DNA of 64,000 nt from an uncultured Chlamydiae bacterium (GCA_963754655.1 CAVWGN010000001.1:1216001-1280000); one strand, 5' to 3'; counted from the first letter of the stretch, positions 2 to 12,922 are shown. The notes: generated by a model not told the origin, from the sequence alone. Numbers and translations are program-made.

Positions 2-1312
2 GGTAGAACGAGTTTGCAGTGTTATCAACACTATAAGAGGACTTTAAACCCCGCTATCAAAAAGAGAAAATGGACAGAAGAAGAAGATGAGCAATTGAAA
101 AACCTTGTGGATCAACATGGAGAAAAGTGGGCAGAGATAGCCGAAGAAATGTCGGGTAGAACGAATATGCAGTGTAGTCAACACTATAAGACTTTAAATG
201 CTGCTAACAAACAAGGAAAATGGACAGAAGAAGAAGATGAGCAATTGAAAAACCTTGTGGATCAATATGGAGAAAAGTGGGCAAAGATAGCCAAAGAAAT
301 GTCAGGTAGAACGGAAAGGCAGTGTATTTACCACTATCAGACTTTAAATGCTGCTAACAAACAGGAAAGATGGACAGAAGAAGAAGATGAGCAATTGAAA
401 AACCTTGTGGATCAATATGGAGAAAAGTGGGCAAAGATAACCAAAGAAATGTCAGGTAGAACGGAAAGGCAGTGTATTTACCACTATAAGACATTTTTAA
501 ACCCCGCTGTCAAACAAGGAAAATGGACAGAAGAAGAAGAAGAGCAATTGAAAAACCTTGTGGATCAATATGGAGAAAAGTGGGCAAAGATAGCCAAAGA
601 GATATCGGGCAGAACGGATCTTCAGTGTAGTCAACACTATAATTCCACTTTAAATCCAACTATCAAAAGGGGGAAATGGACAGAAGAGGAAGATGAGCAA
701 TTGAAAAACCTTGTGGATCAACATGGAGAAAAATGGATAAAAATAGCTAAAGAGATGCGAAGTAGAACGAATAATCAGTGTCTTGTCCGCTATAGGAAGA
801 CTTTAAATCGATCTAGCAAACAGGAAAAATGGACGAAAAAAGAAGATAATCAATTAAAAGAAGCCGTTCAACGCATCGGCGAAGGTCAATGGGCCCTCAT
901 TGCACAGGAGGCGAGAAGCGAAACAAATTCTTCTGTGGAAGAAAGACCTTTAAAAAAATTTAAAAAAAATCATTCCCCTCAATTGTTAGATCTTGATGAA
1001 AATGAAATTCCTTTAGATAGACAGCCTATACGCTTAGATCAACCTCAGCTTATTTTATTCAATCAATCAATTCCTCAATATTTAGAAGAGCCGTTAGATG
1101 CTATTGTTTTGACTTCTATTGTTCAGCAATCATTGAACTATCAGGAGGAGCCCTTTATTGCTGAACACGATTTATTTCTTACAGAGCAGGAGCGGACTTC
1201 TGCACATGTAGAACAGCAGATGGTTTCTAATAAAATTAATGATTTTATCATTCAAAAAAATTCAATGAATTCGCTCTCTACGGTTAAACATTATTCAGCA
1301 AATTTTGTTTAA
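2..1312 (+). CDS. Myb/SANT-repeat protein, array copy 1 (5' end outside window)
   Basis: Frame is open from nt 2 (GRTSLQCYQHY...). Repeats WTEEEDEQLKNLVDQxGEKWxxIAKEMxGRTxxQCxxHY show Myb W-(18)-W-(18)-Y spacing. NLS-like EERPLKKFKK. Last repeat is shortened by an in-frame deletion. Confidence 0.9.
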   Translation, partial: GRTSLQCYQHYKRTLNPAIKKRKWTEEEDEQLKNLVDQHGEKWAEIAEEMSGRTNMQCSQHYKTLNAANKQGKWTEEEDEQLKNLVDQYGEKWAKIAKEMSGRTERQCIYHYQTLNAANKQERWTEEEDEQLKNLVDQYGEKWAKITKEMSGRTERQCIYHYKTFLNPAVKQGKWTEEEEEQLKNLVDQYGEKWAKIAKEISGRTDLQCSQHYNSTLNPTIKRGKWTEEEDEQLKNLVDQHGEKWIKIAKEMRSRTNNQCLVRYRKTLNRSSKQEKWTKKEDNQLKEAVQRIGEGQWALIAQEARSETNSSVEERPLKKFKKNHSPQLLDLDENEIPLDRQPIRLDQPQLILFNQSIPQYLEEPLDAIVLTSIVQQSLNYQEEPFIAEHDLFLTEQERTSAHVEQQMVSNKINDFIIQKNSMNSLSTVKHYSANFV

Positions 1313-1676
1313 TTGAAAGTCTTTAAGCCATGTCTGTTAGTTTAAAAGGCTTTCAGACCTAACTGGATCACTATTGAGTTAGGGTAGAGGATTTAGCAAA
1401 GGCTGGGAAAATTGTATTCCAATTGTTTTTGTTATTTTTCCCCTAAAAATGCAAAACCAAGCCATATTTTGAGGAATTTTTAACTCATTATTTCCATTAT
1501 TTACAAATGTAGTGATCTAATAAATCAAGGTTCAACGAATAGATAAAATTTAATCCAATTATAATAATTTTAAATATAAAAATTAAATTTTATTTATTTT
1601 TTTTTATTGGAATTAGATTAATGATAATTTAATATAATTTTTTAAATTGTGTATGAAATTTTAACAGAGAGGTAGC

Positions 1677-10038: not shown

Positions 10039-11095
10039 ATGAGCAATTGAAAAACCTTGTGAATCAACATGGAGAAAAGTGGGCAGAGATAGCCCAAGAG
10101 ATGTCGAGTAGAACGGATAGTCAGTGTAAGCAACACTATAAGAAAGTTTTAAGCCTACCTATCAAATACAAAAAATGGACAAAAGAAGAAAATGAGCAAT
10201 TAAAAGAAGCCGTTCAACGCATCGGAGAGGGTCAATGGGTCCTCGTTGCACACGAGCTTTCTGATATCACATCTGAGCAATGTGCCTATCAGTGGAAAAT
10301 ATTGAATTCAAAATCTAATAAGAAACATTCGAGAAGCGAAACACATTCTTTTGTGGAAGAAAGACCTTTAAAAAAATTTAAAAAAAATCATTCCCCTCAA
10401 TTGTTAGATCTTGATGAAAATGAAATTCCTTTAGATAGACAGCCTACACGCTTAGATCAACCTCAGCTTATTTTATTCAATCAATCAATTCCTCAACCTT
10501 TAGAAGAGCCGGTAGATGCTATTGTTTTGACTTCTATTGTTCAGCCACCCTTGACCTATCAGGAGGAGCCCTTGATTACTGAATACTACTTACCTTCTAA
10601 AGAGCAAAAGATGACTTTTCAACAAGTGGAGCAACATGTGATTTCTAATAAAATTAATGATTTTATTACTCACAAACTTCAATGAATTCGCTATCAAATC
10701 TTTAAAGATTCTTGACTGAACATTCAACAGATTTTGTTTAATTAAAGGTCTGTTAGTCATTTAAGCAATGTTTATTAGTTAAAAAGCTTCCAGAAGATAG
10801 TTTAGGGAATCTTTCTGATGTAGGAGTTTATGATTTAGCAAAAGCTTGGGAAAATTTCATATGATTTTGTTATTTTCCTCTTAGAAATGCAAACGACAAG
10901 CTCTATTTTTGACGACTTAAACTCACTATTTAAACAGTTAACAATCTAATAAATCAATGCCTAACTGAATAATAAAATTTATTTTAAGTGTTTTCAGTTT
11001 TAATTAAATAAATTTTAAATTTAATTTAGTTTAAATTAATAACGAGTTATTGTATTTTATATAAATTTCGTATGAAACTTTAACAGAGGGATTGC

Positions 11096-12922
11096 ATGAA
11101 TATAGAAATTTCAAATCATTATACTGAACAAGTTAGCGTACCGTCTATTCATGGAGCGGAAATAAATTCGGTGAAAAAGTCCAACAAAAAATGGACAGAC
11201 GCTGAAGATATTCAATTGAGCAATTATATAAAAGAATATGGAGAGAACTGGAAGAAAATTGCAGAGAATATGCCCGGTACAACTTCTCAACAATGCAGGA
11301 AGCATTGGATAAGTGCATTGAACCCTAAGATTAAGCATGGAAAATGGACAGAAGAGGAAAATGAGCAATTGCAAAACCTTATAGATCAACATGGAGAAGA
11401 TTGGGCAAAAATAGCCAAAGAGATGCCCAGTCGAACGGATAATCAATGTCGTCAACACTATAATAGGAGTTTAAACCCCGCTATCAAACAGGGAAAATGG
11501 ACAGAAGAAGAAGATGAACAATTGAAAAACCTTGTGGATCAATATGGAGAAAAGTGGACAAAAATAGCCACAGAGATGCGGGGTAGAACGAATAATCAGT
11601 GTAATCAACACTATAATAGTATTTTAAATCCCGCTATCAAACAGGGAAAATGGACAGAAGAAGAAGATGAGCAATTGAAAAACCTTGTGACTCAACATGG
11701 AGAAAAGTGGACAGAGATAGCCAAAAAGATGCTGGGTAGAACGGATCTTCAATGTAGTCAACACTATAGGACTTTAAACTTCGCTATCAAACAGGGAAAA
11801 TGGACAGAAGAAGAAAATGAGCAATTGAAAAACCTTGTGGATCAACATGGAGAAAATTGGGTAGAGATAGCCAAAGACATGCCAGGTAGAACAAATATTC
11901 AGTGTAGTCACTACTATAGGAATTTAAATCCCACTATCAAACAGGGAAAATGGACAGAAGAGGAAGATGAGCAATTGAAAAACCTTGTGGATCAACATGG
12001 AGAAAAGTGGATAAAAATAGCCAAAGAGATGCCGGGTAGAACAAATATTCAGTGTCGTGAACACTATAAGAGGACTTTAAACTTCGCTATCAAACAGGGA
12101 AAATGGACAGAAGAAGAAAATGAGCAATTGAAAAACCTTGTGGATCAACATGGAGAAAATTGGGTAAAGATAGCCAAAGAGATGCCGGGTAGAACGAATA
12201 TGCAATGTAATCGCCACTATAAGCACACTTTAAACCCAACTATCAAACGGGGCAAATGGATAGAAGAAGAAGATGAGCAATTGAAAAACCTTGTGGATCA
12301 ACATGGAGAAAAGTGGGTAGAGATAGCCAAAGAGATGTTGGGTAGAACGGGTATTCAGTGTAGGCAACGCTATAAGCACACTTTAAATCCAGCTATCAAA
12401 CTGGGAAAATGGACAGAAGAGGAAAATAATCAATTAAAAGAAGCTGTTCAACGTATCGGAGAAGATCAATGGGCCCTCATTGCACAGGAGTTTTCTGATA
12501 AAACATCTGAGCAATGTGCCTATCATTGGAAACTATTGAATTCAAAATCTAATAAAAAACAATTTAGAAACGAAACACATTCTTCTGTTGAAGAAAGACC
12601 TTTAAAAAAATTTAAAAAAAATCACACTTCTCAATCATTAAATCTTCCTGAAAATGGAAGTTCTTTAAATAGGCATTTGACACCATTAGATCAGCCTGAG
12701 CTTATTTTATTAAATCAAGTGATTTCTCAACAGTTAGAAGAGCCGTTAGATGCTATTGTTTTAACTTCTACTGGTCAGCAATCATTGGCCTATCAGAATA
12801 ATGAGCCTTTTATTGCTGAACATGATTTATCTCCTACAAACCAGGAGTTGACTTCTCAACATGTAAAACAGTATGTGATTTCTAATAAAATTAATGATTT
12901 TATTATTCAAAAAATTCAATGA
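11096..12922 (+). CDS. Myb/SANT-repeat protein, copy 6 (first repeat + 7 core + last repeat)
   Basis: Nine Myb-like repeats, leader MNIEISNHY, EERPLKKFKK, acidic tail. Confidence 0.92.
   Translation: MNIEISNHYTEQVSVPSIHGAEINSVKKSNKKWTDAEDIQLSNYIKEYGENWKKIAENMPGTTSQQCRKHWISALNPKIKHGKWTEEENEQLQNLIDQHGEDWAKIAKEMPSRTDNQCRQHYNRSLNPAIKQGKWTEEEDEQLKNLVDQYGEKWTKIATEMRGRTNNQCNQHYNSILNPAIKQGKWTEEEDEQLKNLVTQHGEKWTEIAKKMLGRTDLQCSQHYRTLNFAIKQGKWTEEENEQLKNLVDQHGENWVEIAKDMPGRTNIQCSHYYRNLNPTIKQGKWTEEEDEQLKNLVDQHGEKWIKIAKEMPGRTNIQCREHYKRTLNFAIKQGKWTEEENEQLKNLVDQHGENWVKIAKEMPGRTNMQCNRHYKHTLNPTIKRGKWIEEEDEQLKNLVDQHGEKWVEIAKEMLGRTGIQCRQRYKHTLNPAIKLGKWTEEENNQLKEAVQRIGEDQWALIAQEFSDKTSEQCAYHWKLLNSKSNKKQFRNETHSSVEERPLKKFKKNHTSQSLNLPENGSSLNRHLTPLDQPELILLNQVISQQLEEPLDAIVLTSTGQQSLAYQNNEPFIAEHDLSPTNQELTSQHVKQYVISNKINDFIIQKIQ

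Follow-up and report, generated by a model that had tools for sequence, protein, structure and literature searches.

The DNA stretch analyzed here, referred to as the window, comprises 64,000 nucleotides from an uncultured Chlamydiae bacterium (GCA_963754655.1, CAVWGN010000001.1). It covers bases 1,216,001–1,280,000 of a contig of 3,123,268 bases; the other contig of the assembly has 35,310 bases, and the G+C content is 0.388. At window positions 2–12922 it carries six tandem paralogs on the plus strand, which encode proteins built of Myb repeats (Pfam PF00249, E-values of 1e-21 to 1e-136). As judged from the sequence, selection appears to have kept the Myb scaffold, the cap repeats, a leader and a KKFKK motif in this family, and to have diversified five positions of the recognition helix. 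We hypothesize that these proteins are secreted and read DNA in the nucleus of a host cell, each paralog at long sites of its own, and that their tail acts on transcription; we assign a probability of roughly 55% to this reading. On sequence features, they are good candidates for proteins sent into the host nucleus.

Entropy was computed per column for 47 core (middle) repeats of the main subfamily, aligned in 51 columns. All 47 repeats have the aromatic residues W1, W20 and Y39, and the scaffold as a whole (W1, Q8, L9, W20, I23, R30, C35, Y39) is near-invariant; variation is concentrated in the third helix. The passages of the source used here list K128, E132, K182 and N183 as base-reading residues of c-Myb, together with N136, N179, N186 and S187 (PMC3203581). 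By BLASTP alignment these eight residues map to core columns 33, 36, 37, 40 and 41, a set of contact columns that was fixed from this independent source. In the entropy ranking of the 51 columns, these five hold places 1, 3, 5, 11 and 2 (random placement would put four or more of them among the top five with a probability of 1e-4). They share one face of helix 3 in an AlphaFold2 model, and spell 44 distinct five-residue contact words in the 47 core repeats. The last repeat retains essentially one contact word (E-A/V-Y/R-K/E/Q-I/L), and the first repeat is moderately variable.

Proportions of nonsynonymous and synonymous differences (pN and pS) were obtained from 23 independent nearest-neighbour pairs, formed by greedy pairing of the 47 repeats with one left over. 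Contact codons display pN of 0.295 and pS of 0.211, the remaining codons pN of 0.076 and pS of 0.181. Relative to the pooled pS (0.184), contact pN amounts to 1.6 (bootstrap over pairs, 95% interval 1.25–2.03, with 0 of 5000 replicates at or below 1), and the remainder of the repeat to 0.41 (0.34–0.52). The contact codons' own pS of 0.211 rules out a mutation hot spot. A ratio of 1.6 is reached by 3 of 200,000 random five-column sets and by 4 of 792 sets within helix 3. Per-column pN/pS over all pairs, which are non-independent, agrees with the paired analysis.

The sequence-only reading of this DNA had announced at least six adjacent paralogs at positions 2–12922. Six are indeed present in the window, the leftmost truncated by its edge, and the location is right; the array continues to the left of the window with a seventh gene of 13 repeats. 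A search with the Myb_DNA-binding model, proposed there as a check, matches every piece far above the curated cut-off of 24.4 bits (75–445 bits per window protein). The pieces at 7640–8215 and 10047–10685 are halves of one gene split by an insertion sequence (IS). The features of the array, all on the plus strand and with PF00249 results in brackets, are as follows.

2–1312: 3' part of M2, an open reading frame (ORF) that is open at its 5' end and starts 331 bases left of the window, with 8 Myb repeats in the full protein and a long C-end (E 2.2e-87, 6 matched stretches).
1557–1676: conserved upstream stretch of about 120 nucleotides, from an alignment of 11 upstream regions, with equivalents before 3753, 5861, 7640 and 11096.
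1677–3251: M3, 524 amino acids, 8 repeats; the tail frame breaks near 3231–3237 in a G run and resumes in another frame to about 3342 (E 1.1e-123, 8 matched stretches).
3753–5507: M4, 584 amino acids, 9 repeats; tail frame break near 5495–5501 (E 3.3e-132, 9 matched stretches).
5861–7276 (ORF from 5849 or 5861): M5, 471 amino acids, 6 repeats, complete leader and long tail; the copy used for folding (E 3.7e-88, 6 matched stretches).
7640–8215: N-terminal part of M6, with leader, first repeat and 2 core repeats, interrupted at a repeat boundary by the IS (E 4e-43, 3 matched stretches).
About 8188–10018: IS607-like insertion sequence of 1.83 kb, with resolvase (PF00239) and TnpB (PF01385/PF07282).
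10019–10685 (ORF 10047–10685): C-terminal part of M6, with 1 core repeat, last repeat, EERPLKKFKK and tail (E 3.8e-21, 2 matched stretches).
11096–12922: M8, 608 amino acids, 9 repeats, complete, with a short C-end (…IIQKIQ) (E 1.5e-136, 9 matched stretches).
12590–12919: example of the C-terminal module, EERPLKKFKK followed by an acidic tail rich in Q/N/S/T/P, 100–114 amino acids.

In the whole assembly, PF00249 displays 82 repeat matches, 81 of them above the cut-off, at about 13 loci, which group as follows.

Main array: seven genes, including the 825-residue gene M1 immediately upstream of the window, with 13 full repeats and a 21-residue stump.
1.355–1.360 Mb: second tandem trio, 3 repeats each, divergent.
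1.633 Mb: single gene, 5 repeats.
2.466 Mb: single gene, 6 repeats.
2.583 Mb: single gene, 3 repeats.
2.447 Mb (genome positions 2447086–2447522): fragment with 1 repeat.

All members share a constant order of parts: leader, first repeat, one to eleven core repeats, last repeat, a basic stretch with the KKFKK motif, and tail. The 32 residues of the leader open with MNIGISN, or with MNVGSL in the trio, and close with a cluster of basic residues, for example KKSKKK; the first 24–26 positions hold neither leucine nor a basic residue, and a hydrophobic core is absent. With pN/pS of 0.53, compared to 0.54 for the folded first repeat, the leader is by this measure constrained despite its predicted disorder. 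The core repeats, near-identical and 50–52 amino acids long, are enclosed by a distinct first and a distinct last repeat, and total repeat numbers range from 3 to 13 per protein. The tail comprises 100–114 residues with a net charge of −7 to −11, of which 37–45% are Q/N/S/T/P. Most of this had been anticipated by the sequence-only reading: divergent first and last repeats, three to seven core repeats per window gene (the counts are 6, 6, 7, 4, 3 and 7) and an acidic tail, which stands here together with the basic clusters KKSKKK and KKFKK and is predicted to be disordered. Two of its statements need amendment. The leader is conserved and lacks a signal peptide's hydrophobic core as claimed, and it is rich in Ser/Asn/Ile/Val/Glu and not in proline; EERPLKKFKK is invariant in the six window copies only, with EESPLKKFKK, EERPLKKIKK and EERPSKKFKK in dispersed paralogs and KNLKKFKK or TNVKKFKN in the trio.

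An exhaustive phmmer search of 1.84 billion representative sequences with the tail returned paralogs of the same genome only; one match at E 5.4e-4, a T/G/A-rich repeat protein, is unrelated and was judged to be due to chance. A search of the ESM Atlas with the tail gave no usable match. Shortened or altered C-ends occur in three copies, and in M2 the third helix of the last repeat is missing, as is the NSKSNKK stretch. A homopolymer of six or seven A (near 1230–1245, 7190–7205 and 12895–12910) sets the C-terminus, which is either …IIQKIQ or 14–15 residues longer and finishing in ANFV; KKFKK itself is encoded by A7 and A8 runs. These differences at the 3' ends of paralogs could be slippage-prone variation or sequencing error. 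In the divergent trio (genome positions 1353501–1361500), the tail of one member carries a PIYP tandem peptide repeat, and the first gene stops right after the repeats, with a weak tail-like match some 1 kb downstream, within the intergenic spacer that follows.

The upstream stretch of about 120 nucleotides is kept before all paralogs, including dispersed ones, with a purine-rich segment before the ATG; going by this conservation, it may contain a promoter, a leader RNA and a ribosome-binding site. A generic promoter/terminator scan did not single out this stretch (25 promoter-like sites, compared to 43 ± 6.3 in shuffles). Minus-strand ORFs of 82–115 residues lie opposite the leader and first repeats (1791–2039, 3852–4115, 5876–6133, 11111–11458). 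They recur because the sense sequence recurs, and hence are most likely spurious.

A eukaryote-type Myb fold, as the sequence-only reading had claimed, is borne out by the PF00249 matches, by structural matches and by the predicted model. Among solved structures, the best sequence match is SNAPC4 (7zwc, E 3.6e-35), followed by c-Myb R1R2R3 (E 1.2e-31); identity with c-Myb is 42% over three repeats with the same period of 51–52 amino acids. AlphaFold2 applied to M5 with a 17-row alignment folds all six repeats into three helices (predicted local distance difference test score, pLDDT, about 90), with values below 50 for the leader (1–28) and the tail (334–444) and a terminal helix of low confidence at 433–460. 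Foldseek returns DNA-bound SNAPC4 as its top match (7xur_A, E 6.4e-11). Two adjacent model repeats superimpose on DNA-bound c-Myb (1h89_C) with a template modelling (TM) score of 0.88 and a root mean square deviation (rmsd) of 1.8 Å over 114 columns. The long-range arrangement of the repeats in the model is unreliable, given a predicted TM score (pTM) of 0.38.

On these data, the mechanism that we consider most likely is the following. The unstructured leader would carry the proteins through a type III secretion system (T3SS) into the host cell, probably a protist. A Ser/Asn/Ile/Val-rich N-terminus free of leucine and of basic residues resembles type III secretion signals, and the genome contains one T3SS export-gate gene (PF00771). 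Inside the host, the basic clusters may act as nuclear localization signals, adjacent repeats would sit in the DNA major groove in the manner of c-Myb R2R3, and an array of 3–13 repeats would recognize a long site of composite make-up, different from one paralog to the next. The acidic disordered tail may then recruit or block the host transcription machinery.

A more far-reaching version, which we regard as quite unlikely, would make the family a toolkit of injected modular DNA readers, in which each middle repeat reads about 3 bp via its five variable helix-3 residues by a reusable relation of residue to base. A c-Myb repeat spans about three base pairs; if the same held here, the order of repeats would spell a long target site. 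As a corollary, the family would mimic or compete with host Myb regulators, steering the cell cycle or blocking encystment. In the passages available to us, one source cites work on Myb regulators in stage-specific and cyst-formation expression of Entamoeba and in Toxoplasma encystment (PMC9283445).

Several observations weigh against the proposal that these proteins are secreted and read host DNA. Secretion, nuclear import and DNA binding are steps that we infer. The AlphaFold2 geometry is unreliable past two repeats, a three-repeat match having an rmsd of 7.3 Å. The pN/pS values are uncorrected Nei–Gojobori counts from short repeats with possible gene conversion, and represent a strong pattern, not a formal site test. 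The canonical Lys/Asn readers of c-Myb are unconserved, which could mean that DNA reading has been lost. Core repeats are nearly neutral (+0.45, compared to +7 for c-Myb R2), with −4.15 in the half formed by helices 1 and 2, and whole proteins carry −2 to −6; such a charge pattern is equally compatible with SANT-like binding of proteins and with binding of DNA.

The last two points favor an alternative in which the proteins are secreted to the nucleus and bind chromatin proteins or RNA there, either contacting histone tails like SANT domains or serving as decoys that titrate host Myb partners. PF00249 spans SANT as well as Myb domains, and there are weak matches to SANT_DAMP1_like and SLIDE, without an independently significant stretch. 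However, by sequence and by fold the proteins match DNA-bound Myb domains best (SNAPC4, c-Myb, Trichomonas Myb) and not SANT modules, the Q-C motif and LNP linker known from DNA binders of the R1/R2 type show little or no variation, the helix-3 half of the core repeat carries a net charge of +4.6, and fast evolution is found on the single face of the helix that would read bases. We consider this alternative unlikely.

Two further points against secretion and reading of host DNA concern distribution. First, no other protein of the genome was found to carry the leader or the tail; as they are confined to this family, modular use in other proteins does not speak for the leader as a secretion signal. 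The second is the absence of matches in the same genus. Among 5.8 billion proteins, relatives above 50% identity occur only on the same 3.12-Mb contig. With M5 as query, neither of 2 same-genus genomes gave a match, which indicates that the family is dispensable for the lifestyle, and 5 of 60 other genomes of the family did, at 22–44% identity. Nine related loci that were examined match in the repeats only, with leader or EERPLKKFKK in none. In the wider phylum, at least 13 of 300 other genomes have a Myb match (E ≤ 1e-5), at least 9 of these 13 among the 31 genomes of the same family. As the best 22 candidates per genome were scored, these counts are floors; within those candidates, no other genome has more than 11 Myb matches. 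Another genus of the family contains a tandem one-strand cluster of six two-repeat Myb genes of 152–280 amino acids (G188:C3:73501-83000), most of which carry KRQK/KRPK-type basic motifs in the linker or near the N-end; this cluster is an independent small Myb family. Hence, by sequence comparison, Myb proteins recur in this chlamydial family, while the architecture of leader, caps, KKFKK and tail appears private to one genome among those searched. The source appears to be an environmental chlamydia of a Parachlamydiaceae-like family, and the gene family lineage-specific.

A separate observation concerns a chlamydial assembly of 190 contigs (G127:C177:2043-5174), where Myb frames of 305 and 730 amino acids have very long tails rich in Lys/Ser/Ala. 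These tails look eukaryotic or histone-H1-like, and the frames represent either true bacterial genes or contamination.

The proteins might instead never leave the bacterium and serve there as regulators that bind DNA, or as nucleoid proteins, after domestication of a eukaryotic gene. This would do without secretion, itself an inferred step, and would suit the conserved upstream region of bacterial type, purine-rich before the ATG, as well as weak Myb-like matches in free-living bacteria (a Bacillus subtilis control matched). We nevertheless find it rather improbable: a constrained disordered leader, basic clusters and a long acidic disordered tail have no obvious role within a bacterium, arms-race-like selection is unusual for housekeeping regulators, and the family was not found in the two same-genus genomes.

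The damaged copies are the remaining point against a working host-directed family: an IS insertion (M6), two tail frame breaks (M3, M4), one deleted helix (M2), a 21-residue stump (M1) and one fragment. Together with the G+C content of the array (0.344–0.352, below the 0.388 of the genome), they could be taken as signs of a decaying relic of horizontal transfer, or of a functionless expansion driven by the repeats. This is very unlikely in our view. Frames of up to 825 codons are open; the scaffold (0.41) and the contact sites (above 1) are both away from the neutral value of 1; and dispersed copies, too, retain the leader, caps, KKFKK and upstream region. Some frame breaks may moreover be assembly errors. 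In the same window, gyrB is distributed over at least six frames (19431–21935) and gyrA over two overlapping ORFs (21956–23029, 23010–24461), and the genome has no other homologues than ones of 34–36% identity; either an essential enzyme has decayed to pseudogenes here, or the assembly contains local indel errors. Hence, the small frame breaks in M3 and M4 are not taken as established.

The element in M6 has a serine recombinase at 8248–8814 and a TnpB that is split over 8738–9019 and 9012–10013; an intact unit encodes a serine recombinase of 188 and a TnpB of 402 residues. It belongs to the IS607 family by its TnpA serine recombinase followed by TnpB and its multiple near-identical copies. 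Genome-wide there are 11 full-length copies (98.4–100% identity), both genes being intact in 6 of them, and 2 partial copies. The element is regarded as active because ten further full-length chromosomal copies share 98.4–99.6% identity.

Growth of the family can be followed in the repeats. In the 13-repeat gene, two neighboring repeats show 1.3% divergence in their bases; in M4, the closest partners of repeats 3 and 4 are repeats 6 and 7, with DNA differences of 3.3% and 6.5%; and several closest repeat pairs sit in different genes. The smallest members consist of a first, one core and a last repeat; the simplest reading is therefore that long arrays arose by amplification of the middle repeat. 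By these comparisons, the family seems to have grown by tandem duplication of genes, each with its 120-nucleotide upstream region, and by amplification of the middle repeat from 1 to 11 copies in blocks of one to few repeats.

With respect to origin, the next matches outside the genome are eukaryotic-looking metagenomic multi-Myb proteins with about ten or more repeats (33–40% identity), besides named eukaryotic SNAPC4, MYB4R1 and 3R-Myb proteins. A claim that eukaryotes have no Myb arrays of more than four repeats (the sequence-only reading gave 2–4 as usual) would accordingly be too strong, as these best outside matches are eukaryote-like. A three-repeat member used as query retrieves its own paralogs and then eukaryotic or unnamed metagenomic 3R-type Mybs at 33–45% identity, with no match in this search named as bacterial. 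In pairwise scores the first repeat resembles R1, the core repeats R1 and R2, and the last repeat the final repeat of SNAPC4-like proteins, with an amoebozoan protein scoring best; typing of the donor by single-repeat scores against 18 named eukaryotic proteins gave mixed answers. The sequence relationships suggest that the family derives from a eukaryotic Myb DNA-binding domain of R1R2R3/SNAPC4 type.

Eukaryotic outside relatives and the low G+C content would also be expected if host or other eukaryotic DNA had been mis-assembled into a bacterial contig. This we consider extremely improbable. The genes are free of introns and share an upstream region of bacterial type; one copy contains an IS of which 10 near-identical full copies lie across the same chromosome; chlamydial genes stand on both sides within a contig of 3.12 Mb; and paralogs are dispersed over five other chromosomal places. 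Among public reads, the sequence was listed for one DNA run of a soil metagenome (0.07 of sampled words) and for no RNA run, which is uninformative on habitat, expression and assembly.

Upstream, the array is flanked by genes for S-adenosylhomocysteine (SAH) hydrolase, DnaA, a RhoGEF-domain protein and YidC; downstream follow a kinase fused to an FGE-sulfatase domain and then a Protochlamydia-type outer membrane protein (Pom porin). The RhoGEF protein (522 amino acids, PF00621, E 1.6e-8) is encoded some 5.4 kb before the array's first gene (L032:4929-6497) and, by its domain, may be another eukaryote-like candidate effector. Directly 3' of the array, window positions 13749–15782 encode the Ser/Thr kinase fused to the FGE-sulfatase-type domain, which we take to be Pkn1-like. 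Further downstream (27221–33523) lies the gene of a 2100-residue protein with 14 Big_3_5 Ig-like repeats, PKD and TIG domains, which is probably a surface adhesin.

To our knowledge, only a few bacterial proteins reach the host nucleus and read DNA there directly, and transcription activator-like effectors (TAL effectors, TALEs) are the only example with a repeat array. TALEs changed genome engineering. If our hypothesis holds, the present family would be a second, independently evolved repeat-array reader of nuclear DNA, on a fold taken from eukaryotes, in a group of bacteria where genetic work on effectors is almost impossible. The selection pattern predicts that different contact words go with different long binding sites. 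A natural series of Myb arrays with 3 to 13 repeats could be used to ask how many repeats track the major groove, and a symbiont genome would be seen running a birth-and-death, arms-race-like gene family. Should the proteins not be secreted or not bind DNA, what is left would be the expansion of a domain acquired by horizontal transfer, unusual but ordinary in kind.

The full-text literature searched contains no description of bacterial multi-Myb arrays, of a Myb nucleomodulin or of their selection analysis, which agrees with the sequence-only reading, whose author knew of none; chlamydial Myb domains may be listed in some catalogue. Literature matches for MYB combined with chlamydial names were a culture-medium abbreviation, plant genes or reference titles. 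Nucleomodulins such as NUE, SinC and AnkA share with the present family eukaryote-like parts and delivery to the host nucleus, the latter presumed here. According to the available part of a 2021 review, AnkA binds host DNA directly, none of the nucleomodulins named there uses Myb repeats, and the single occurrence of the word Myb is in the title of a cited work, on how XopD targets host MYB30 (PMC7819608). A 2023 study lists, in its accessible passages, Myb-like transcription factors among eukaryotic-like proteins of clostridial endosymbionts of termite-gut protists, and states that such proteins occur in Legionella and Chlamydiota (PMC10579323). In contrast to the present arrays, these Myb-like proteins of other intracellular bacteria are, as far as those passages go, entries in catalogues, with one or two repeats per protein. 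Of the further chlamydial Myb proteins examined by us, none has this leader, the cap repeats, KKFKK or this tail. Hence, we regard the family as a variant on eukaryotic-like effector families and on repeat-array DNA binders.

The likeness to c-Myb and 3R-Myb comprises the fold, the spacing of the three aromatic residues, the repeat period, the Q-C motif, the LNP linker and the sequence identity given above; three-repeat members (M9-M11, M15) resemble a 3R-Myb with foreign leader and tail. The family differs from c-Myb in that the third aromatic residue of the core is Tyr, amplification of the middle repeat reaches 11-fold, the Lys/Asn readers have given way to a hypervariable set and the genes are bacterial; the last repeat is not R3-like (score 65.8, compared to 90 for R1 or 4R repeat 2). 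SNAPC4 (SNAP190), which like plant MYB4R1 has four and a half Myb repeats, is the best structural match by both sequence and fold. The last repeat aligns to the last repeat of SNAPC4 and scores highest against that of a five-repeat Myb protein of the amoebozoan Planoprotostelium. Unlike SNAPC4/MYB4R1 with their 4.5 repeats, the present proteins have a variable repeat number of 3–13, and similarity is confined to the repeats (M5 query positions 88–336). Orthology to SNAPC4/MYB4R1 is ruled out by a match in the repeats only, the variable count and a tail without an outside relative; nor are the proteins orthologues of c-Myb.

The layout of the TAL effectors of Xanthomonas and Ralstonia resembles the present one in its unstructured N-terminal region, capped array of near-identical repeats, basic clusters, acidic C-terminal region and multi-copy paralogs, and to this extent the TALE-like architecture claimed by the sequence-only reading stands. 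On the other hand, the two share neither fold nor repeat length, the variable positions number five per repeat instead of two, and one basic cluster precedes the array. Membership in the TALE family is ruled out, the units being Myb repeats of 50–52 and not TALE repeats of 33–35 amino acids, and no TAL-effector family is among the listed Pfam matches. A code of one base per repeat is likewise unsupported because the five positions vary jointly, with nearly as many words as repeats. Tandem arrays of C2H2 zinc fingers (PRDM9, KRAB-ZNF) likewise consist of near-identical DNA-binding modules and change in number by unequal exchange, with positive selection confined to base-contact positions. The pattern of entropy, pN/pS and contact words described here matches theirs, although the fold is different and those are eukaryotic nuclear genes. 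As an analogy, tandem zinc-finger arrays hence seem to fit the present family better than TALEs do.

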